Of a stretch of DNA of 64,000 nt, positions 1-62,669 are shown in pieces (the first letter of the stretch is position 1; every line of letters starts with the position of its first letter). Position numbers and translations under genes: made by a program. The notes below the pieces were generated by a model that was not told the origin of the DNA, searched no databases, and was given only the letters and a program-made list of their open reading frames with translations. Origin of the DNA: Squalus acanthias (lineage: Eukaryota); assembly GCA_030390025.1 (NCBI GenBank), contig CM059432.1, positions 18,788,001 to 18,852,000 of the forward strand. Direction: 5' to 3'.

Positions 1-988
1 CTAAGTAAGTGGGCAGAGATTTGGCAGATGGAATACAACACTGGAAAGTGTGAGGTGATGCACTTTGGCAGGAAAAATCCTAGAGCAATTTATTATCTTA
101 ATGGCAAGAAACTGGAGAGTACTGAAGTGCAAAGGGATCTGGGGGTCCTGGTGCACGAAACTCAAAAGGTTAGTATGCAGGTGCAGCAAGTGATTAAGAA
201 GGCAAATGGAATGTTGGCTTTCATTGCTAGGGGGATAGAATATAAAAATAGGGAGGTATTGCTTCAGTTGTACAAGGTATTGGTGAGACCGCACCTGGAA
301 TACTGCATACAGTTTTGGTGTCCTTACTTAAGGAAAGACATCCTTGCTCTCGAGGCAGTGCAAAAAAGGTTCACTCGGTTAATCCCGGGGATGAGGGGGT
401 GGTCATATGAGGAGAGGTTGGGTAGATTGGGACTCTACTCATTGGAGTTCAGAAGAATGAGAGGCGATCTTATTGAAACATATAAGATTGTGAAGGGGTT
501 GGATCGGGTGGATGCGGGGAGGATGTTCCCGATGACGGGTGAGACGAGAACTAGGGGACATAGTCTTAGAATAAGGGGCTGCTCTTTCAAAACTGAGATG
601 AGGAGGAACTACTTCACTCAGAGGGTGGTAGGTCCATGGAATATGCTGCCACAAAAAGCTGTAGAAGCTACAACATTAATTAAATTTAAAACAGAAATAG
701 ACAGTTTCCTAGAAGTAAAGGGCATTAAGGGTTACGGGGAGCGGGCAGGAATTTGGACATGAGTCTAGGTTCGGATCGGTCATGGCCCTGTGGGTAGTGG
801 AGCGGGCCCAGGGACTGTGTAGCCTGATTCTGCTCCTATTTCGTGTGTGCAATTCTGTTAGATGCAGGAGATGGTTCTGTGATAGATAGTAGATTGGCGG
901 TTAGGATCAGATCAGCCATGATCTTATTGAATGGCGGAGCAGGCTCGAGGGGCCGATTGGCCTACTCCTGCTCCTATTTCTTATGTTC
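1..988 (+). mobile_element. CR1-clade LINE 3' end (ORF2 C-terminus 28..762 plus 3' UTR and TTATGTTC tail)
   Basis: ORF 28..762 has CR1 motifs [37 protein letters not shown]; the 3' UTR ends GGCCTACTCCTGCTCCTATTTC(TTATGTTC)2. Confidence 0.95.
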
Positions 989-10455: not shown

Positions 10456-11500
10456 TGGTGAAGCAAGTAAGCTGGATCGGCTGGCTAAGTGGAAAGGCAC
10501 TTACCTCCTGAATCCAGCTGTCCTCGCCTCCCTATTTAAATATTTAAATTGCCAACCCACCTCCTGGGAGTGGGTTGGTTGCCCGCCCCCCCTGCCCCGC
10601 CTCCATTAAAACCGGAAGTGGGAGGGTTGGTGTCGGGATTCAGATTATTAACACTTTAACCTCCCATCTGATCCAAACCGGCCCATTTTGTGGAGTTAAA
10701 ATTCCCCCCGTTGTGTATCCGCACGAACACCATCTGGATAGCAGGGCATGCGGGCACTAGTTAATGTAAAACCTTTTTAAAGATTATCCAAGTGGACCGA
10801 TGCACAGTAGAATCCTTAATATGGCACTCTAGAAACAGAATTTGATACATTAAAGTTTAAAGTTGTACTTCTGGCTGGGAGAACTTACCGTTGTACATAA
10901 CAAAGCCTGGAACTAGAGAGGCCACTTAATCCAACTGTTTCTAAAAGATTATTTACGTGAACTCCTCAAAGAAAAAAGATCTTCAGATTTCTAGAGTTGC
11001 TTGAAGTTTTCCAATTTCATATTTGTGCCCTCGTATTCTGCGATGACAGAATAACATATCACAGCTTAATTTAACTGGCTTGCTTTTAAATTCATTATAC
11101 ATGCCTTCATCATTTTAAAAACCTGGATCACATAAATTCTTAGGGCTAGAAATTCATTATAGCCCAGGAATGGGCATTATAATTAGAAAAGTTTGAGAAT
11201 TAGTGCCAGGCACTAATGCTTTAGACTGCATGCAAAATTAATGCTCACGGCTCAAAGAAATGATAGGAGCACTAATTCAAGTCTTAAATCCCAAGCGCAT
11301 TGGTGTTACACTTAAAGGGGGGACCAATATCAGGTGCAGTCTAATCGCAAGACATGATTGCCACAGGCTTTTTCCAGTTCTTAAAGGGGAGGTTCTTGAT
11401 GCTGCAGAACCTCAGTCTCAGCATTGCTTGCTGTGCAGCTGCCTCAGCAAGCAGCAGCAGGTTAAGGAGAAGGAGCCAGAGGACTGAAGCAACTGTACTC

Positions 11501-13372
11501 ATGCCAGATCCACACCCCAGGGAGAGAGACCGCAGATTCTGCAATCAAGCATTGGATGTGTTGATGTTCACTGTAGAGAGATGGAGGGCGGTGCTCTACC
11601 CGGCAAATGGCAGGAGGCCCTCGCCGCAGGTCTTCCGCATCATGTGGAGGGAGGTAGCCCAGCACGTCTCGGGCAGCACTGTGCTCCCCAGGACCCACAC
11701 AGAGTGCAGGAAGAAATTTAATGACCTCACTCGGGTGGTCAGGGTGAGTCAATGCTTCAACAAATGCTACATACCACCATCTGAACCACAGTCTTCACAC
11801 ACTGCCCAAAGCACCAGACTGCCAGCACTCACCCACCAACAATCTCTACCTACCAACACTCACACCCACATCTCACACCTTGTACACAATGACAGCTATT
11901 CAACTATGGCAGGCACATCACCCAACCACATTGCTCCACACTCACTCATACATTTTCCTTTCTCTTGCAGGCCAAGGTGGCTCACAACAGGAGGGAGCAG
12001 GAGAGCACAGGCGGGGGACAAGCCGACACCCAACCACTGTCTGCGCTGGAGAATGGAGTGCTGCAGATTATTGGGCACCAGGCAGTGGGCGCATGGCCAC
12101 TGGCGACGTTGACCTCCTTGGGGACAACAACGGTATGTTCATCCCTACTCCTTCTTCTCACATCCCACTTCCCCCTCACCCCACAAGCGTTTTGCACTTT
12201 CCCGCTAATCATGCTGTATGCATGCAGTATTCCCTTCCTGCACCCTCCCCTCACCTTAACCCAACTCTTGTGCCTTTATGTTTTCAGATAATGAACAAGC
12301 ACCTGAGCAGCCTGTCCCTGAGGGCACCGTGGAGAGCAAGGCGGGAGAAGAGGAGGAGGAAGAACACACCACGTCACTGCATGTCTCACCTGCAGGCACC
12401 AGCTCAGATACTGGCACTACGTGTTCTTTAGAGGCTAGTATAGTAGCGGGATCTGCACAGGGTGAGGCACCAGGGACGAGTGGGCTGCAGCAAGGCCAGG
12501 GGGAACGGGTAGCCTGGAGGGCGAGTTGGCATGCGTGTGCTGCTACACAGGATTCAGATGAGGAACTCGATGGGGAGGCCTTTAGAAGAAGGGTGATGGG
12601 CATGCACACGGAGATGATAGGTGCATTGGCAAGGGTGCCCGGGAGCTTCTTAGCAATGATAAGGAGCGCGGAGGAGTCTGCCTCCAAAATTGCACAAGGC
12701 TCTGTGCAGAGCACAGAGCCCATCATTTCCAGTCTGTAAAGGATGGTAGACTCCCAGAGAGACTGTGGCGACCCAGACCTGATACCACGTGTGATGGGCG
12801 ATCTGGCAGCTTCTAGTGCAGCACAGGCGGAAGCGACGCAATGTCTTAGTGCTATAATGCAGTCTATGCTTGGTGGCATCCAATCTCAGACTGCTCTCAT
12901 GTAGTCTCAGCTTGATGCCACGCAAGCTCTGACTGCTTCCATCATGGCTGGGTCTACCACTGTCAACCGGGGCTTTCACGGTGTCGCAGCAGGCCAGCAA
13001 TCTGTGGTGCAACAGATTGCTAGGGATGCTGAGGTGCTGCACCGGGGGAGTGGCAGTGAGTCAGAGGAGCAGGAACCTGCTGTCCTCTCTCAGGATGACA
13101 GCATTCCTGCTCCCACCACTGCCACTCCGCCATTGCCCTTGTCGCTGCCTGTCATCCAGCCAGCCGTGACTGCTGCCGCCGATGCTGAGGTGGTGCTGTC
13201 TATAGCCGGGCCTTTCAGGCGTCCTGCAAGGCCATTTGAAGTCTCCTGCACAGACACTCAGCAGCCTTCCACCAGCCCTGCTGCAGCCATTGGGCCAACA
13301 CTTTGTAGGAGCACTAGAGTAGGCAAAGGCACAGTAACGACAGGCACTAAGGGATTGCACAAGGGTGAGTAG
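11501..13372 (+). pseudogene. Harbinger Myb/SANT-like (NAIF1-like) DNA-binding protein gene; predicted exons 11501-11743, 11971-12132, 12288-13372
   Basis: MPDPHPRERDRRF...WREVAQHVS...RTHTECRKKFNDL; splice sites GTGAGT (11744), TTGCAG (ends 11970), GTATGT (12133), TTTCAG (ends 12287); one frameshift in exon 2 and two in-frame stops in exon 3. Confidence 0.85.
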
Positions 13373-26810: not shown

Positions 26811-27093
26811 TGGCTTCCACAGTGGCAAGAGAGTAGTAAGTGACAAGCTGTTGCTTTCCCTCAGCAACCTTTGGGGAATGAAGTGGTCTTCATTTCTCTG
26901 CAGCTGTGGCCCCCACAGGGACCTGCTGCAGACTTTGTCTCATCTGCTGTTGCCAGTGTTGCCTGATCCTGGCTGCTCTTTGCCACATGCGCAGGCATCT
27001 AGGAGAGCTGGTGAGAATGTACACACATGGTCCCATCCAGAGAGAAAGCAACCTGAATCATCCCAGTCAGTTCACTGAGACCTAAGATATACT

Positions 27094-27238
27094 AGAATGA
27101 CTAATGACGAAAGGTCATCGACCTGAAACGTTAACTCTCTTTCTCTCTCCACGGATGCTGCCTGGCCTGTTGAGTTTTTCCAGCGTTTTCTGTTGTTATT
27201 TCAGATTTCCAGCATCCGCAGTATTTTGCTATCGTCTT
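27094..27238 (+). mobile_element. Penelope-like solo pseudo-LTR fragment (family B), 5' truncated within the hammerhead core
   Basis: 13-bp TSD CCTAAGATATACT (27081-27093, 27239-27251); near-identical to the arms of 57274-57555. Confidence 0.85.
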
Positions 27239-27732
27239 CCTAAGATATACTTGTCTGGATTCCAACCCTAGTTCCTTGGAGAGCAGTAGAGAGCCCTCTC
27301 CATTCTACCACCCAAGATGTCAATGGCTGAATTTGCAGCTTTGATGCCAGAAGATGCGCCTGTCCTTACTCCCTCTCTAGGAGCGGCTTATGCTGAAACT
27401 CATTCTGAAGTTGCCACATTGAACACAGATTCATCAAAGAAGTGGATGCGGGTAGTGGACTCCTCCTGCTTAGCCACCGTCTGTAGTCCATCCTGGAACA
27501 CCACCTCCACTATCTCTATCAAATGGTATGTTGGCCTTTATTACAAGAGGATTTGAGTCTAAAAGTAAAGACGTCTTACTGTAATTATATAGGACCCTGG
27601 TGAGACCACACCTGGAGTATTGTGTACAGTTTTGGTCTCCTTACCTAAGGAAGGATATACTTGCCATAGAGGGAGTGCAACGAAAGTTCACCAGACTGGT
27701 TCCTGAGATGGGGGGAGATTGTCCTATGAGGA

Positions 27733-27818
27733 CACTTCACCTGACGAAAGAGCAGCGCTCCGAAAGCTTGTGATTTCAAATAAACCTGTTGGACTATAAC
27801 CTGGTGTTGTGCGACTTC
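27733..27818 (+). mobile_element. 86-bp Penelope-like pLTR insertion (family A)
   Basis: 11-bp TSD TCCTATGAGGA (27722-27732, 27819-27829); homologous to 62070-62158. Confidence 0.88.
27737..27773 (+). ncRNA. Minimal type-I hammerhead ribozyme motif
   Basis: TCAC-CTGACGA-(GAGC agc GCTC)-GAAA-GCTT-GTGA; stem I TCAC/GTGA; palindromic AAGCTT at stem III. Confidence 0.75.
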
Positions 27819-28318
27819 TCCTATGAGGAGAGATTGAGTAGATTAGGCCTATCTTGTCTAGAGTTTAGAAGAATGAGAGGTGATCTCATTGAAACATACA
27901 AAATTCTTACAGGGTATATGCAGGGAGGATGTTTCCCCTGGCTGGGGAGTCTAGAACCAGGGGGTCATAGTCTCAGAATAAGTGGTCGGCTATTTAGGAC
28001 TGAGATGAGGAGAAATTTCTTCACTCAGAGGGTGGTGAATCTTTGGAATTCTCTACCCCAGAGGGCTGTGGAGGCTCAGTCGTTGAGTATATTCAAGACA
28101 GAGATTGACAGATTTTTGAATATTAAGGGAATCAAGGGATATGGGAATAGTGCAGGAAAGTGGAGATGAGGTGGATCAGCCATGATCTTATTGAATGACG
28201 GAGCCAAATGGCCTACTCCTGCTCCTATTTCTTATGTTCTAATTATGTTCTAGTTCGATGCTTTTTTGGGCATCTGTGTTTTACAGAGCTGTATGATAGT
28301 GTAATGATTATTTTACTA

Positions 28319-40264: not shown

Positions 40265-41185
40265 ATCATAGAATCATAGAAAGTTACAGCATGGAAGGAG
40301 GCCATTTCGGCCCATCGTGTCCGCGCCGGCCAACAAAGAGCTATCCAGCCTAATTCCAATTCCCAGCTCTTGGTCCGTAGCCCTGCAGGTTAGAGCATCC
40401 CAAGTGCACATCCAAGTACTTTTAAAATGTGGTTAGGGTTCCTGCCTCTACCACCCTTTCAGGCAGTGAGTTCCTGACCCCCACAACCCTCTGGGTGAAG
40501 AAATTTCCCCTCAAATCCCTTCTAAACCTTCCACCAATTATTTTAAATTTGTGCCCCCTGGTTTTTGACCCCTCTGCTAAGGGAAATATGTCTTTTCTAT
40601 CCACTTTATCTATGCCGCTCATAATTTTATACACCTCAATAAGGTCTCCCCTCAGCCTCCTCTGTTCCAAGGAAAACAGACCCAGCCTATACAATCTTTC
40701 CTGATAGCTAAGATTCTCTACTCCTGGCAACATCCTTGTAAATCTCCTCTGTACCCTCTCTAGTGCAATCACATCTTTCCTGTAATGTGGTGACCAGAAC
40801 TGCATGCAGTACTCCAGCTGAGGCCTAACTAGTGTTTTATACAATTGAAGCATAACCCCCCTGCTCTTGTATTCTATTGAGAGGTCGCACAACACCAGGT
40901 TATAGTCCAACAGTTTTATTTGAAATCACTTGTATTCTATGCCATGGCTAATAAAGGCAAGCATTCCGTATGCTTTCTTAACCACCTTATCTACCTGGCT
41001 TGCTACCGTCAGGGATCTGTGGACATGCACTCCAAGGTCCCTTTGTTCCTCTACGCTACTCAGTGTCCTACCATTTAATGTGTATTCCCTTTCCTTGTTA
41101 GCCCTCCCCAAATGCATTACATCACACTTCTCCGGATTGAATTCCATTTACCACTGTTCTGCCCACCTGACCAATTTATTGATTC
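40265..41185 (-). mobile_element. CR1 LINE 3' fragment with a 51-bp PLE insertion
   Basis: ORFs 40422..40910 and 40926..41147; CATAGAAT tail repeats at 40265. Confidence 0.92.
40878..40928 (-). mobile_element. 51-bp Penelope-like pLTR fragment (family A)
   Basis: 12-bp TSD CTTGTATTCTAT (40866-40877, 40929-40940); reverse complement reads TGATTTCAAATAAAACTGTTGGACTATAACCTGGTGTTGTGCGAC. Confidence 0.85.
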
Positions 41186-45774: not shown

Positions 45775-48700
45775 ACATAGAAACATAGAAACATAGAAAA
45801 TAGGTGCAGGAGTAGACCATTCGGTCCTTCGAGCCTGCACCGCCATTCAATGCGTTCATGGCTGAACATGCTACCTCAGTACCCCATTCCTGCTTTCTCG
45901 CCATACCCCTTGATCCCCCTAGTTGTGAGTATTATATCTAACTCCCTTTTGAATATATTTAGCGAACTGGCCTCAACAACCTTCTGTGGTAGAGAATTCC
46001 ACAGATTCACCACTCTCTGGGTGAAGAAGTTCCTCCTCATCTCAGTCTTAAATGGCTTCCCCTTTATCCTTAGACTGTGACCCCTGGTTTTAGTTTTCCC
46101 TAACATTGGAAACATTCTGCCCGCATCTAATTTGTCTAAACCAGTCAGGATTTTAAACGTCTCTATAAGATCCCCCCTCATTCTTCTGAACTCCAGAGGA
46201 TACAAGTTCAGTTGATCCAGTCTTTCTTGTCAGTCTGGCCATCCCAGGAATCAATCTAGTGAACCTTCGTTGCACTCCCTCAATAGCAAGAATGTCCTTC
46301 CTCAAGTTAGGAGACCAAAACTGCACACAATACTCCAGGTGTGGCCTCACCAAGGCCCTGTACAACTGTAGCATCACCTCCCTACTCCTGTACTCAAATC
46401 CCCTTGCTATGAAGGCCATCATGCCATTTGCTTTCTTGACTGCCTGCTGCACTTGCCTTCCCACCTTCAGTGACTGATGTACCATGACGCCCAGGTCTCG
46501 TTGCACCTCCCCTTTCCCTAATCTGCCACCATTCAGGTAATAGTCTGCCTCCCTATTTTTACCACCAAAGTGGATAACCTCACATTTATCCACATTGTAC
46601 TTCATCTGCCATACATTTGCCCATTCACCCAATCTGTCCAAGTCACTCTGTAGCTTCCTAGCATCCTCCTCATTGTTCACACTGCCTCCCAATTTAGTGT
46701 CATCCGCAAATTTGGATATATTACAATTAATCCCTTCGTCCGAATCATTAATATATAATGTAAACAGCTGGGGCCCCAGCACCGAACCCTGCGGTACCCC
46801 GCTGGTCACTGCCTGCCATTCTGAAAAGTACCCATTTACTCCTACTCTTTGTTTCCTGTGTGCCAACCAGTTCTCAATCCACGTCAACACATTACCCCCA
46901 ATCCCATGTGTTTTAACTTTGCACACCAATCTCTTGTGTGGGACCTTGTCGAAGGCCTTCTGAAAGTCCAAATACACCACATCTACTGGTTCCCCCCCGT
47001 CCACCCTATTGGAAACATCCTCAAAAAATTCCAGAAGATTTGTCAAGCATGATTTCCCTATCACAAATCCATGCTGACTTGGACCTATCATGTCGCCACT
47101 TTCCAAATGGTCTGTTATGACATCTTTAATAATTGATTCCATCATTTTACCCAACACCGATGTCAGGCTGACCGGTCTATAATTCCCTGCTTTCTCCCTC
47201 CCTCCTTTTTTAAAAAGAGGGGTTACATTAGCCACCCTCCACTCCTTCGGAACTGATCCAGAGTCTAAGGAATGTTGGAAAATGATCGTCAATGCATCCA
47301 CTATTTCCAAGGCCACCTCCTTAAGTACTCTGGGATGCAGACCATCAGGCCCTGGGGATTTATCAGCCTTCAGTCCCATCAATTTCCGCAACACCTTTTC
47401 CCGACTGATAAGGATTTCCCTCAGCTCCTCCCTCTTACCAGATCCTTTGATCTCTTTTATTTCCGGAAGGTTGTTTGTGTCCTCCACAGTAAACACCGAA
47501 CCAAAGTACTTGTTCAATTGATCTGCCATTTCTTTGTTCCCCATTATGACTTCCCCTGTTTCTGACTGCAGGGGACCTACGTTTGTTTTTACTAACCTCT
47601 TTCTTTTTACATATTTATAGAAGCTTTTGCAGTCCGTTTTAATGTTCTCCGCAAGCTTCCTTTCATATTTTATTTTCCCTGCCCAAATCAAACCCTTCGT
47701 CCTCCTCTGCTGAGTTTTAAAGTTCTCCCAGTCCCCGGGTTTGCTGCTACTTCTGGCCAATTTGTATGCCACTTCCTTGCTTTTAATACTATCCCTGATT
47801 TCCCTTGTTAGCCATGGTTGAGCCACCTTCCCTTTTTTATTTTTACGCCAGACAGGGATGTACAATTGCTGTAGTTCATCCATGCGATCTCTAAATGTCT
47901 GCCATTGCCCTTCCACTGATAACTCCTTAAATATCGCTTGCCAATCTAACCTCGCCAATTCACACCTCATACCCTCAAAGTTGCCCTTATTTAAGTTCTG
48001 GACCATGGTCTCTGAATTAACTGTTTCCTTCTCCATCCTAATGTAGAACTCCACCATACTATGGTCACTCTTCCCCAAGGGGCCTCGCACCACAAGATTG
48101 CTGATTAGTCCTTCCTCATTACACAACACCCAGTCCAGGATGGCCTCCCCTCTAGTTGGTTCCTCAACATATTGGTTTAGGAAACCATCCCTTAAATACT
48201 CCAGGAAATCCTCCTCCACCGTATTGCTTCCAGTTTGAGTAGCCCAATCTATATGCATATTAAAGTCACCCATGATAACTGCTGCGCCTTTTTTGCATGC
48301 ACCTCTGATTTCCTGTTTCATACCCTCCCCCACCTCACTACTACTGTTTGGAGGTCTGTACACAACCCCCACTAACGTTTTCTGCCCTTTGGTGTTCTGC
48401 AGCTCAACCCATATTGATTCCACATCCTCCAAGCTAATGTCCTTCCTAGCTATTGCATTAATCTCCTTTTTAACCAGCAATGCTACCCCACACCCTTTTC
48501 CTTTTATTCTATCCTTCCTGAATGTTGAATACCCCTGGATATTCAGTTCCCAGCCTTGATTGTTCTGGAGCCACGTCTCTGTAATCCCAATCACATCATA
48601 TCCGTTAACATCAATTTGCACAGTCAATTCATCCACCTTATTACGGATGCTCCTTGCATTAAGACACAGAGCCTTTAGGCTTGTTTTATTAACACCCTTT

Positions 48701-48780
48701 GTCCTTTTAGACTTATGATTTAGTATGGCCCTTTGTGTTTCTTGCCTTTGTTTACTCGGATTTCCCTTATTGTTTCTCAC
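45775..48780 (-). mobile_element. CR1 LINE with nearly complete ORF2
   Basis: 875-aa ORF plus frameshifted C-terminus 45876..46205; (CATAGAAA)n tail. Confidence 0.97.
45876..48780 (-). pseudogene. CR1 ORF2: APE endonuclease plus reverse transcriptase, one frameshift near 46228
   Basis: APE motifs LNARSI, ITETWL, VYRPP, GDFN, SDH; RT motifs YLDFQKAFDKV, GVPQGSVLGP, FADDTKL. Confidence 0.95.
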
Positions 48781-48827
48781 CCTTCTAACAAATCATGTCC
48801 TCCAGCAACTCATATCCTTGAACCTAG

Positions 48828-52364: not shown

Positions 52365-53062
52365 AAGGGACGAAACAGATTAGTTATCTGAAAAGCTCCA
52401 GCATGATTGTTCATTTTTTCAAAAATGGGAAAGGAACATTTTTGAATCGAAAGGCCCATTTAAAAAGAAGTGAATTTGTTCCTAAGACTTGAAGAGTGCC
52501 TGGTAATGATGCTGTTAGAAACTAATGATGCCTAAAAATGTATATGACTATGCGATTAAAACTGTGACGTGAAAAATGCTGTGTTTAAATGGTTATGTTC
52601 GAATTGCAGACGGAAAGTCTCCTCGGACCAGATAGATGCTTAGAAGTGCTAATATTTTGGTTTGCTACGGAGGTACAATCTCCCTGTTGCTAAGCGATTA
52701 TCTGTTGTTTTTAAGTTAAGACTTGAACCTTGTTTATGTATTTTCTGTATAATGCTAAGGTAGAATTTGAAGTTAGCTTAACAGGACTGCTTGCGAAGAT
52801 AACGGAAGGAAGTTTGGGGAAGTTAACGTAAACATTTGCTACGTCATAAAGGAGGTAACACTCTGAAGCGAACAGGTTTCTGGTTGGGCCTCATGAGATC
52901 AAAGAAGGATACAGACGGAAGAGAAAGAGAGAGAGAGAGCTTGAACTCACAGACAGGAGAGAGAGAGAGAAGGAGGCTCTAGACGAAAGGAAGAAGAGAA
53001 TTGCTCACGTGTTTCAACCGTCTGTCCGATCGGATCGGTATCAGCTTCTTGTCACGGTCGTA

Positions 53063-54192
53063 GGGAAAAAGCAGGTAATTACAGACCTGTAAGCCTTACA
53101 TCAGTTGTGGGCAAAATGCTGGAGTCCATCATTAAGGATGAAATAGCGGAGCACTTAGCAAATGGGGACAGGATAGGACAGAGTCAACATGGATTTACAA
53201 AGGGTAAATCGTGCTTGACTAATCTATTGGAATTTTTTGAGGGAGTAACTGGTAAAATAGATGGGGGAGAGCCAGTGGATGTGGTGTACCTGGACTTCCA
53301 AAAGGCCTTCGATAAGGTCCCACATAAAAGATTAGCAGGGAAAATTGAAGCTCATGGGATAAAGGGGAAAGTATTGACGTGGATAGAGAACTGGCTGTCA
53401 GATAGAAAACAGAGAGTTGGAATAAACGGCTCATTTTCTGAATGGCTGGCAGTAACAAGTGGGGTACCACAGGGATCTGTCCTGGGTCCCCAGCTGTTCA
53501 CAATTTACATTAATGACCTGGATCAGGGAGTCGGATGCAGCATTTCCAAATTTGCAGACGACACTAAACTAGGAGGAGGGGTGGGCTCAGAGGAGGAGAC
53601 CAGGAAGCTCCAGAGCGATTTGGACAGACTGGGTGATTGGGCGGATAAATGGCAGATGCACTATAATGTGGACAAGTGCGAAGTTATCCACCTTGGGTGC
53701 AGGAACGGGAGGGCAAATTATTATTTAAATGGCAATAAATTGGGAGAGGGGGAAGTACAGAGAGACCTGGGTGTTCTTGTACACCAGTCACTGAAGGCGA
53801 GCATGCAGGTGCAACAGGCGATCAAGAAGGCAAACGGTATGCTGGCCTTCATAGCAAAAGGGTTGGAATACAGGAACAGGGATACCTTGCTGCAGCTGTA
53901 CAGGGCACTGGTGAGACCACAGCTCGAGTACTGTGTACAGTTTTGGTCGCCTCATCTGAGGAAAGATGTTCTTGCCATGGAGGGGGTGCAGCGGCGATTC
54001 ACCAGGCTGATACCAGGAATGGCGGGATTGACCTATGAGGAGAGACTATGTAGTTTAGGGATGTACACACTGGAGTTTAGAAGATTGAGAGGGGACCTCA
54101 TAGAAGTGTATAAAATTCTGACAGGTCTAGACAGACTAGATGCAGAAGGAATGTTTCCCTTGGCGGGTGAGAACAGAACTAGAGGACATAAT
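53063..54192 (+). mobile_element. CR1 RT fragment (open ORF 53107..54210), truncated at both ends
   Basis: SQHGF, YLDFQKAFDKV, GVPQGSVLGP, FADDTKL; CR1 similarity stops after RTRGHN. Confidence 0.95.
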
Positions 54193-54259
54193 TTAGTTTT
54201 TGCTGTATAACTAATGTGTTATATTCCCTCTTAAACTCTGATTAAACACAATCCTGTCT

Positions 54260-57130: not shown

Positions 57131-57273
57131 ATGACACAGGGATGCATGTTTTAGTTTGGTATCATCAGCAAAGACCAAATAGTTTGCTATACTAAATGAT
57201 CCTAAATTATTCTCAGTAAAGCAGTACCAGCAGAAAGCCAATAAGGAAGGCAGAAGAGCTACTAAATAGTCAC

Positions 57274-57555
57274 GATAGCAAAATACTGCGGATGCTGGAA
57301 ATCCGAAATAACAACAGAAAATGCTGGAAAAACTCAGCAGGCCAGGCAACATCTGTGGAGAGAGAAACAGAGTTAACGTTTCAGGTCGAAAACCTTTAGT
57401 CAGAACTGGAAAAAAGCAGGAAATGAAATAGATTTAAAGCTTTCTGCTTTTTTCCAGTTCTGACGAAAGGTCTTCGACCTGAAACGTTAACTCTGTTTCT
57501 CTCTCCACGGATGCTGCCTGGCCTGCTGAGTTTTTCCAGCGTTTTCTGTTGTTAT
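57274..57555. mobile_element. Penelope-like insertion made of two inverted pLTR fragments (family B)
   Basis: 14-bp TSD TACTAAATAGTCAC (57260-57273, 57556-57569); inverted arms about 57307-57419 and 57444-57556. Confidence 0.88.
57456..57492 (+). ncRNA. Minimal type-I hammerhead ribozyme motif
   Basis: AGTT-CTGACGA-A-(AGGTC ttc GACCT)-GAAA-CGTT-AACT; palindromic AACGTT; the antisense copy at 57371-57407 has a mutated core (CTGACTA). Confidence 0.78.
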
Positions 57556-59501
57556 TACTAAATAGTCACTGCTGGAAGCATCCCTTTTCACCTGAAAGTT
57601 GTAGACTTTTTTGAATTGTCAGCAAAATCATCTCCCATCTATAATAAGAAAGATACTTCCCTTTCGTCAAGAGAATGGAAAAAACTCATTGAGAGGGTGT
57701 TTGCCTTCCAGCAATAACTGCAGTATAAATTCAATGTCTGGTTTATTTTTTTGAAGGGTTTTCTTCCACTGTACTGCCTCTTCAATTGACAGATATATCT
57801 TGTTGGTATGGTCTCTTTCGAGAAAATAGATTTTTGAGAGGAAAGTGCTGACTGTCACAGTATATTTGAATATTTGCCTGTTCTTGTTTTAAATAAGAAT
57901 TTTCCTCCTCTCCAGTGTCCCTTTTTTCTTGAAAATATGGACTGATACGGGGGCATGGTTCCATAGACGTCGGTCCCCTTCTAATAGCAAATAAAGTGGC
58001 TTGGACATGACAATGCCCTAAACTATGAGCGTTGGTGGACTATTTCCTCACGCAGCACATCACAGCTGAGCTGGATCCTGTCTTGTCCTCAGCCTTAAAC
58101 TTCTGGGTGATGTCCCTGCAAGACCTGGGGCCATCATCCACAATGCAGTGTCTGCCAACATCTCCCCATGCTTTGAGGAGCCTGGCTGGAGTGGGAGAAC
58201 GTGCCTCTACATTGAGGGATAGCTACCTCATCAGACTCTTCTCCTGCTCTGCCCATGGTGTTATGAACCCTAGCTGGAAGACCAGCAATCTACATGAGAG
58301 CAGTCTATAGGATGTCTGTAGGGTGAAGCCGATTGTCACTGTTCTTTCCAAATGATGTCCTAGTCTGTCAAATCCAGCAACCATGGACTCATGTGCCCAA
58401 CTTTTCAATGGCACTCGTCATTTGTGAGAGGATGTTGTTCTACACTAGTTCCTTCTCTTCCTGGGGATGGCTATGAAGATGCCACTTGCTGCACAGTGCT
58501 CTACCTTTGAATAAATCTATCCTGAAGAACTACAGTGATCTCGGAGGCGCACTCCTGCGCCTTCTCCATCTCTGCAGGCTCTTTATGGTGGACTCCAGAA
58601 ATGCCTTCTGCTCCATCATTAACCCCACCCTGGAATGCCAATCCCTTCCCCATATAGTTGTCAAACAGCAGGGGCTAGCAGTTTGAACCCTACCCTCCTA
58701 TACCTTAACTCCATAGATGTTTTACACCCCCTTTAAAGTGCTCCATTGGGAAGCCTTTTTAAAAAATGAAGAGCACTAGCATATTAAGTCATATCTTGTA
58801 GCTCTTCTCTCTAACATTAAGGATATTCTATATTACTCTCCTCCGCACTCGCTCTCGGGCTGGATCATCTCTTATGTTTTGGTGATCGAAAGTGTGCATC
58901 ATTCTCAAGGTGTGGCCTGGCCAGGGTCTTGTGCAGCTTCAGCACAACTTCTAGCGATTTGAACTCAACTGAGCAGCTTGAGATAACTCTCCAAATTGCT
59001 CTCCTTCCCTGAGAGGTAGTGTCTGGCCTGAACTTGCCTTCTCACCCTAAAGGTCCAGCCGAGATCAGTAACTCACAACTTGGGTAATCACAGGTATGTG
59101 CTAGTATTCTTTGTCACAGTGTACTGGGCCACCACAGTCCTGAACTAAGAATATTGGCCCAGAAATTCCTGGTTCCCAGTTTAGTGTAACTGGCAGTTTA
59201 TGCTGAAATTAATGCCAGTCTCCGCGCTGATCTTGCCGACGGAAACCTAATGGCAAAAATTTGTGAGAATCTCATTAGAATGTCCCGCAATATGTAAACC
59301 GATGTAGAACAATGAGCTCAGAAGTAATGGTGGGCTCAAGAAACATGGGAGCACTGTAAAAGGGTCAGAACAGATATCATTCCTCAGAGTGAAGCTTGGG
59401 AGTTGAATGTAAGTGAAACATGGTTTTCTTGAATCTCGTTTGATAAAAATGATGTTATACATTGCTTCCAGTAGCTCAGCAGCATTGCCATTTTCACAGA
59501 G

Positions 59502-61027: not shown

Positions 61028-61397
61028 GTAAGACACTCACCATGCTCTCATTTTCTTCTGGAGGACAGACTTGGACAAAATAAATGTTTTAATGTTCTCT
61101 GAACAAATCAGATGTTTAGCTGAAAAAGGCTCGACTTGGCATCGGGGGAAGCAAGTTGTCTTGAAGGATTAGGGTGGTGAGCGTCTGCTTGCTGAATCCA
61201 CCTCCTCCTTCTTACCTTCAGCGGTTGCTTTGCACTGTGCTATAACTTCATCACCAGTTTACTGTTAACTTTTTCTGTGTTGAGTGGCTGAGCCTGGACT
61301 GTTTGTTTTTGATGTGGAGATGCCGGCGTTGGACTGGGGTGGACAAAAATCAGAAGTCGCACAACACCAGGTTATAGTCCAACAGATTTATTTAATT

Positions 61398-61436
61398 TTA
61401 CAAGCTTTCGGAGCTGTTCGCTCCTTCTTCAGGTAA
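61398..61436 (-). ncRNA. Minimal type-I hammerhead ribozyme motif
   Basis: Exact reverse complement of 62074-62112. Confidence 0.78.
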
Positions 61437-61656
61437 GGTAGCTGTGAGAGAATCTCCCAGAATTCACAATATAAACACAGAAAAAATCTATTCAAATCTT
61501 TCCCTACATCAAAGACACACTAAGAGCACAGCCAAGACAATGAGATGTGTCCCAGGGGGTCCAACGTGTCAAAACACCTGCTGGCTGCATATCCTCTCCA
61601 TTTGTTGTGTTAGTCTTTTTAAAACAAAACCTGGAAAGACCGGCCATGATGTCAAG

Positions 61657-61827
61657 TCACGTTCTGTATCGTGACATGAACCCGATATCGCGATTGAGGC
61701 CATCCTCATGAGTGCGGAACTTGGCTATCAGTTTCTGCTCTATGATTTTGCGCTGTCGTGTATCCCGAAGGCCGCCTTGGAGAACGCTTACCCGCAGATC
61801 CGAGGCTGAATGCCCCTGACTGCTGAA
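61657..61827 (-). pseudogene. C-terminal 56 aa of a PLE GIY-YIG endonuclease
   Basis: My translation: FSSQGHSASDLRVSVLQGGLRDTRQRKIIEQKLIAKFRTHEDGLNRDIGFMSRYRT*, fitting the PLE pattern F...GH...DL.V..L...R...E...I...T...GLN. Confidence 0.85.
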
Positions 61828-62073
61828 GGTTCATGTCACGATACAGAACGTGACTTGACATCATGGCCGGTCTTTCCAGGTTTTGTTTTAAAAAGACTAA
61901 CACAACAAATGGAGAGGATATGCAGCCAGCAGGTGTTTTGACACGTTGGACCCCCTGGGACACATCTCATTGTCTTGGCTGTGCTCTTAGTGTGTCTTTG
62001 ATGTAGGGAAAGATTTGAATAGATTTTTTCTGTGTTTATATTGTGAATTCTGGGAGATTCTCTCACAGCTACC

Positions 62074-62112
62074 TTACCTGAAGAAGGAGCGAACAGCTCC
62101 GAAAGCTTGTAA
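62074..62112 (+). ncRNA. Minimal type-I hammerhead ribozyme motif
   Basis: TTAC-CTGAAGA-A-(GGAGC gaaca GCTCC)-GAAA-GCTT-GTAA. Confidence 0.8.
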
Positions 62113-62669
62113 AATTAAATAAATCTGTTGGACTATAACCTGGTGTTGTGCGACTTCTGATTTTTGTTTGTTTTTGGCCATTGCAGTACAGCGGCTCCTT
62201 TCGCTCTGTGACAGGTAAAGTGATGTTTGTTTTACTTGCAATTACTGTTTGATAATGCTGTTAGGGTGCTTTGATTCAGTGATGCAGTTCTCTTGGTGAA
62301 AGGGTGAACAAGGACTTAAACAGGGAAATGTTTTAAAGGTTGCTTTACAGTTTGACACTTAATTACCTGTGTACTGTGTCACTGATGCCGGCCTTTTCTA
62401 AATGGCTACATCTTTGTTAATGTTCACATTGAACTAATTTTCCGTAGTGAATGTTCATATATTGCACTGAATGTCTGAACTATGACAGTTCACCTGCTCT
62501 GTTGCTGCTCAGTCAGCTGTGTTTTCGGTTTGAAAGTTCACTTTGTTGATGCTCATTGCTAATTGATGCCCGTTTGTGTGACATTTGTTGAATAAAGCTT
62601 TAACTGTTTGTTACATTGTCTGGTCTGGCAGTCTGTGCAATCACAGTGCCACAGATAATGGTCCACATG

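Follow-up and report, generated by a model that had tools for sequence, protein, structure and literature searches.

Minimal hammerhead ribozymes were described in the pseudo-LTRs of metazoan Penelope-like elements (PLEs) by Cervera and De la Pena (2014, PMC4209133). The two motif families (A and B) of the shark DNA analysed here, a stretch of 64,000 nucleotides from Squalus acanthias (the window), share with the motifs in the available part of that paper the type-I layout, the CUGANGA core, an extra base after A9, a short stem I, a stem III consisting of a palindrome, and a UH cleavage triplet; published rows exist with the same GCUU and CGUU endings. The differences lie in the host and the family sequences, and in stem II of family B, which opens with A-U rather than G-C, as does that of one coelacanth row. 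The published motifs are mostly single and come from truncated PLEs, with some opposite-strand pairs 100-700 bp apart, resembling the pair in insertion A1 of the window (~640 bp apart). No shark name is found in the supplement file of PMC4209133 that was searched, and a literature search on Penelope hammerheads of sharks and cartilaginous fish returned no paper devoted to these families among those listed; preprint supplements may include them. The motif class has been known since 2014, in many animals; the present analysis adds two shark families, which as such matters little. Whether motifs of this class are active in living cells, and what the cut contributes to the transposition cycle, is the question for the field.

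Neptune and Nematis PLEs, in the available part of Craig et al. (2021, PMC8557442), resemble both families in possessing an inverted 5′-truncated copy and a tail of 30-40 bp at one end, and resemble family A also in a C-terminal GIY-YIG endonuclease, a cysteine linker (present in close homologs of family A) and a pseudo-LTR hammerhead. The Poseidon PLE of the green anole (Frangieh et al. 2024, PMC11167929, likewise available in part) shows a tail set by two alternative 3′ end points, as the window copies do; its reverse transcription starts internally, downstream of the hammerhead, and both target strands are extended, which fits the inverted arm pairs described below. In contrast, Poseidon belongs to a different clade, its ORF starts inside the hammerhead whereas no such start codon is found in the window copies, and the portion of the paper at hand reports no reads at the cut site, whereas one window copy (A3) starts there. 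Non-LTR retrozymes (bioRxiv 10.64898/2026.07.22.740005, available in part), of which type-I hammerhead examples are reported from one chondrichthyan, share the type-I hammerhead and the origin from PLE pseudo-LTRs, but they consist of units in tandem, two or more of which have a complete hammerhead, whereas the window copies are solo or inverted. Comparison of the window with itself detected no tandem same-strand arrangement at any locus, and classification of the window copies as retrozymes was rejected because no tandem units were detected in that comparison.

Hammerhead motifs and insertion events in the window

The original prediction placed intact hammerhead cores with their stems, palindromes and cleavage triplets at 62074-62112(+), 61436-61398(-), 27737-27773(+) and 57456-57492(+), and all four are found at these sites. 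The loose pattern CTGANGA-N5-35-GAAA is not above chance, with ten matches in the window compared to 6.7 ± 2.7 in shuffled sequences and at least ten matches in 15 of 100 shuffles. A full descriptor of the minimal hammerhead was defined by the core, a stem I of at least 3 bp, a stem II of at least 4 bp, GAAA, a palindromic NN and UH. It matches the window three times under strict pairing and four times if one stem II mismatch is allowed, recovering exactly the four predicted sites, and it matched none of 1,000 dinucleotide shuffles; consequently, the motifs are not due to chance. No hammerhead model of Rfam matched at E ≤ 1 in the window, at E ≤ 10 in 61990-62200 or at E ≤ 5 in the distant relative L001 (a metagenome contig described below), presumably because the Rfam hammerhead models expect a stem III; the scan of the window gave solely weak miRNA and lncRNA matches below gathering scores, the best of them on the inverted repeat of insertion B1, and the scans of 61990-62200 and L001 gave no match of any kind. 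An accidental origin, through fortuitous hits of a short degenerate pattern on repetitive DNA, would agree with the unenriched loose pattern, the missing Rfam match and the weak z-scores of the motif folds (0.05 to -2.5), but it is refuted by the empty shuffles and by the recurrence of the motif at the equivalent position of L001, which was found by protein similarity alone.

The type-I order of core CUGANGA, GAAA and UH is found at all four sites, and is broken or absent in three further copies that the original prediction overlooked: 57407-57371(-), 27105(+) and 40929(-). An extra base lies between positions 9 and 10.1 (offset 1) in all four descriptor matches. Stem III was correctly predicted to be reduced to a palindrome. 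Positions 15.2-16.2 are palindromic in both families and in L001, with AACGUU in family B and AAGCUU in the other two, and none has a monomeric stem III. Pairing of stem II, also predicted throughout, is kept in A1 and in the right arm of B1, but the copy at 27737 (A2) has an A.C mismatch at 10.1-11.1, where A1 and L001 have the conserved G10.1-C11.1 and B1 has A-U.

The four sites are not four copies. The motifs at 62074(+) and 61398(-) belong to the two arms of one insertion, which leaves three insertion events, and their treatment as independent copies was rejected since the arms differ at none of 340 positions. With the overlooked copies included, the window contains five insertions with seven arms; core and both stems are intact in three of the arms (A1 left and right, B1 right). 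Target duplications of 11-14 bp flank all five insertions.

Family A and its relatives

Insertion A1 is an inverted repeat of two arms bearing identical hammerheads on opposite strands. The right arm (61828..62164, +) is a 5′-truncated inverted pseudo-LTR copy that ends at the short 3′ end and has no tail. Its hammerhead (62074..62112, +) consists of a stem I of 4 bp, a CUGAAGA core with the extra A, a stem II of 5 bp with G10.1-C11.1, GAAA and AAGCUU, with a predicted cut after 62108. The left arm (61312..61827, -) comprises the end of a PLE ORF, a 3′ UTR/pseudo-LTR with the second, non-independent hammerhead (61398..61436, -), and an extra tail of ~34 nt (61312 to about 61345). The target-site duplication of 12 bp is at 61300..61311 (+) on the left and 62165..62176 (+) on the right. 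At 61351 and 62159, both arms have a base that accounts for only ~3% of family depth in public run X5, consistent with the arms having been copied from one template or homogenised later.

A coding stretch of 57 residues closed by a stop codon (P0001, 61657..61827, -) lies on the minus strand between the arms of A1 and is the C-terminal remnant of a GIY-YIG endonuclease. The fragment alone has no Pfam match, but in a protein search 16 of 27 candidates matched it, the best being P0002, a shark protein of 643 residues with reverse transcriptase (RT) and GIY-YIG domains, whose residues 589-642 are 94% identical to the fragment. P0002 has an RVT_1 domain (E 5e-9), and no RT is present in the truncated window copy; the relatives P0005 and L001 match Pfam GIY-YIG. 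A cysteine linker of the form C-x4/5-C-x2-C is present in P0002 (as C-x4-C-x2-C) and in L001; the window fragment, which corresponds to the last 54-57 codons, does not contain it. According to the part of PMC8557442 at hand, a CX2-5CxxC linker between RT and endonuclease is the motif of Neptune and Nematis, and family A is probably of this type, a clade assignment read from the homologs P0002 and L001 rather than from an RT tree. Family A is a PLE, as indicated by the adjacent GIY-YIG remnant, the layout of the insertion and the independent relative L001.

L001 was the one candidate confirmed out of 124 in a scan of metagenome contigs that used protein only, with 61% amino-acid identity. Its hammerhead lies 278 nt past the stop codon, and its UTR can be aligned with that of A1 only in the hammerhead, a 21-nt box downstream of it and a short piece of the tail. 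L001 (541-1090) is thus a distant PLE with the hammerhead ending, downstream box and tail of family A, a likeness that suggests either an old conserved pseudo-LTR module or horizontal spread. DNA pattern scans for family A retrieved nothing from metagenome, viral or genome contigs. Protein-based scans confirmed none of three candidates in viral contigs. In genome contigs they confirmed one of 72, L002, whose sequence stops 33 bp past the match and so has no UTR. L002 (1110-1271) is a PLE GIY-YIG fragment in a 1.3-kb contig of the genome record of a bacterial gill symbiont, and is probably contamination by host DNA.

The other two insertions of family A are short and lie within LINE elements. 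A2 (27733..27818, +) is a solo copy of 86 bp with a hammerhead at 27737-27773 and a target duplication of 11 bp (27722-27732 and 27819-27829). In addition to the A.C mismatch at 10.1-11.1, its hammerhead has an alternative stem I pair. The loss of G10.1-C11.1 looks like decay, because contig consensuses in public runs X6 and X9 keep G10.1. A3 (40878..40929, -) is a copy of 51-52 bp that covers the interval between the predicted cut site and the short 3′ end, with a target duplication of 12 bp (40866-40877 and 40929-40940); its 5′ end is +0 or +1 from the predicted cut, one base being common to the copy and the target duplication.

Measured from the cut site, the 3′ ends of family A copies are at +49, +52, +56 and +90, and those of family B at +67, +101 and +106. 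Contigs of four public runs (9,612, 2,177, 9,596 and 2,049 contigs) were aligned to 61290-61827; one of the runs, X16, may as a guess be RNA, but contig ends cannot stand for RNA ends, and the alignment does not bear on expression or cleavage. Among the loose ends listed, those with mixed flanks occur at 61310-61313 in all four runs and at 61352 in two of the four, indicating that the two 3′ end points are a property of family A and that family A is abundant.

The original prediction also claimed covariation of the stems within the window. One compensatory pair in stem I (A1 versus A2) bears this out, and the window offers nothing beyond that pair. The AGTT/AACT stem I of family B had been counted as well, and was rejected as covariation because no homology between families A and B was detected in the comparison of the window with itself. 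L001 adds two compensatory pairs to the single one of the window, with the weak statistics of three sequences: in A1, A2 and L001 together, 25 of 26 cells pair and three of nine pairs change on both sides, a level of covariation reached by 16 of 500 shuffles, and slid controls pair at 57% or less (n=3 sequences). Covariation across these three sequences is suggestive of a conserved fold. Within the core letters, GAAA, the palindrome and UH, the three differ solely at the free position N7.

Variation in the public runs touches the same stems. The A2-type 3′ strand of stem I is among the loose ends in all four runs, and the matching 5′ strand is found in X6 (one contig) and X9 (34 contigs), the strands being counted separately and not linked on one contig. 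Among the variants listed, changes at the free N7 position make up ~35% of the X5 depth, and deletions in loop II (61419) make up 93-100% in X6 and X9. Stem I changes for which no change of the partner is listed occur at 61436 (25% in X5, 42% in X16) and at 61400 (15% in X16) and tell against clean covariation, although the list of variants lacks changes that the loose ends imply.

Family B

Insertion B1 (57274..57555) is an inverted pair of 5′-truncated, pseudo-LTR-like arms that differ at six of 115 compared positions, with a tail on the left arm only and a target duplication of 14 bp (57260-57273 and 57556-57569). The hammerhead of its right arm (57456..57492, +) has a stem I of 4 bp, a CUGACGA core, a stem II of 5 bp that opens with A-U, and AACGUU, with a predicted cut after 57488; that of the left arm (57371..57407, -) is decayed, with core position G8 changed. 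Insertion B2 (27094..27238, +) is a copy with a tail and a target duplication of 13 bp (27081-27093 and 27239-27251). The match of B2 to the family starts at 27105, which is U4 of the core, so that C3 and the 5′ strand of stem I are missing; the 11 bases at its 5′ end (27094-27104) match neither family B nor the target.

The original prediction assigned both families to PLEs. For family A the GIY-YIG remnant, the layout and L001 agree with the assignment, and for family B only the layout does so: the inverted arms, the one-sided tail of 34-39 nt and the target duplications of 13-14 bp are those of family A, from which family B, too, would be a PLE. It could instead be a non-autonomous derivative (retrozyme- or SINE-like) or some other short hammerhead-carrying element, rather than the pseudo-LTR of an autonomous PLE. 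Such an origin would agree with the finding that tblastn with P0002 matches A1 alone in the window and no ORF remnant near B1 or B2, and that a protein search with the one open frame of family B confirmed none of nine candidates; PLE-derived non-autonomous retrozymes are, moreover, reported in one chondrichthyan (in the available part of bioRxiv 10.64898/2026.07.22.740005). Nevertheless, the family B copies are never tandem and have the layout of family A, and they extend only ~50-65 nt 5′ of the cut site whereas the ORF of family A ends ~255 nt upstream, so copies of this length are too short to reach an ORF positioned as in A. A non-autonomous origin is therefore improbable, and membership of family B in the PLEs is the preferred reading. 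A DNA pattern scan for family B found nothing in viral contigs.

Folding, cleavage and copy ends

A single molecule is unable to form stem III, so cutting would require two motifs joined by their palindromes. By analogy with the published class, the cut would fall after 62108 in A1 and after 57488 in B1. ViennaRNA, which has no model of the tertiary core, used the palindrome in the best dimer of one of four motifs (A1), and the best monomer fold of B1 is not a hammerhead. In the portions of the literature available, a dimer of a schistosome minimal hammerhead cut weakly (PMC4209133), eight of nine dimers of Xenopus retrozymes did not cut (bioRxiv 10.64898/2026.07.22.740005), and cutting by the anole PLE hammerhead needed protein, with rescue of a core mutant (PMC11167929).

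It is very probable that the motifs of the window are minimal hammerheads of PLE pseudo-LTRs, in two families, spread by retrotransposition as short 5′-truncated insertions, with a step of cutting as tandem dimers that is taken from the literature. The copies were inserted by a target-primed process, as shown by the duplications of 11-14 bp, the two inverted arm pairs and the 3′ ends at two fixed points; these points are ~35-40 nt apart, the interval between them being the tail. In an intact tandem-element transcript, according to the literature, two motifs may pair through the palindrome and so supply stem III. The CUU or GUU triplet may then be the point of a slow cut, probably made with the aid of the element's own protein. 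Reverse transcription would start downstream of the cut site, at a distance of 50-105 nt, and in many cases stop early, which would explain why most genomic copies, the short ones here included, are little more than a hammerhead and 50-105 nt. The fold of family A is likely to have been selected in the element lineage, as its place in the 3′ UTR behind the GIY-YIG ORF and the compensatory changes in a distant relative suggest.

The fold may be kept mainly for protein binding or for setting up reverse transcription, and cut rarely or never in vivo; this explanation is compatible with PLE identity and competes with the cleavage step only. It would fit the low in vitro activity of the published motifs and, in the part of PMC11167929 at hand, the dispensability of the anole hammerhead for insertion in vitro (core mutants do not affect it) and the lack of RNA-seq reads that start or end at the cut site. 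In the window, six of seven copy 5′ ends lie away from the cut site, those of the short copies other than A3 being 28 to about 65 nt upstream of it (the B1 figures are approximate), and the public contigs aligned to 61290-61827 have no pile-up at the cut site among the loose ends listed (24 of 547 rows). However, the identity of the catalytic core, GAAA, palindrome and UH in A1, A2 and L001 (except N7) speaks against a purely structural role, the anole motif does cut in the presence of protein with core-mutant rescue (PMC11167929), and A3 starts at the cut site. A structural role without cutting is accordingly a minority reading, though one to be taken seriously, and a slow cut aided by protein is preferred.

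A3 could be a strong-stop product, formed if reverse transcription had an internal start and continued to the 5′ terminus of a hammerhead-cut RNA. One of the seven copy 5′ ends is of the A3 type, and simple uniform assumptions give a probability of ~7-21% for a single hit of this kind; this origin is put forward tentatively and is doubtful. If A3-type copies were over-represented genome-wide, shark genomes, with thousands of copies of family A, would hold a fossil record of cutting in vivo, and such a record, if true, would supply the evidence that was missing from the anole RNA-seq. Because family A is both abundant and young, the positions of its 5′ ends across a shark assembly could bear on cutting in vivo, and the family would suit reconstituted assays in which a Neptune-type protein is supplied.

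The window copies themselves appear to be dead passengers, selection acting on the element lineage and not on them. The original prediction of conserved self-cleaving motifs dispersed by PLE retrotransposition is supported for the dispersal; conserved working ribozymes at these loci are not supported, given the decay of cores and stems, the absence of tandem same-strand copies and the predicted sequestration of the motifs at inverted loci. In read-through RNA of A1 or B1, the motif is predicted to pair with its own antisense arm in a long duplex, with a stem II probability of 0.00 compared to >0.93 for a single arm. Co-option of the window copies, to act as ribozymes within transcripts of the host, could be argued from A1 and from the right arm of B1, whose cores and stems are intact, but A1, with its identical arms, is most simply intact because it is young; A2 has lost the G10.1-C11.1 of which the X6 and X9 consensuses keep G10.1; breakage or truncation affects B2, A3 and the left arm of B1; no locus offers a same-strand partner; and the predicted antisense pairing would bury the motif. 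The window copies are thus unlikely to be functional ribozymes, and their co-option is very improbable.

If transcribed, the inverted insertions (61343-62167 and 57307-57556) would form long double-stranded RNA hairpins, that of A1 with 340 bp of perfect pairing. In A1 (61312-61385, -), B2 (27152-27218, +) and L001 (1027-1084), a box that lies immediately 3′ of the cut site is able to pair with the tail. The helices of box and tail are 9-10 bp in both families and in L001, with folding z-scores of only -0.9 to -1.5; in A1 the pairing has two overlapping options, possibly a pseudoknot or a switch.

The window also contains long LINE-type open frames at 46156-48792 (-), 52945-54207 (+) and 1-759 (+), including a frame of 879 residues with endonuclease and RVT_1 domains. 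These frames are taken, by recognition, to be CR1-like, and it is into such presumably CR1-like LINE elements that both A2 and A3 are inserted. A Myb/SANT-like DNA-binding domain at 11345-12109 (+), whose match (E 2e-4) lies slightly below the Pfam cut-off, may, as a guess, be the remnant of a Harbinger-type transposon.
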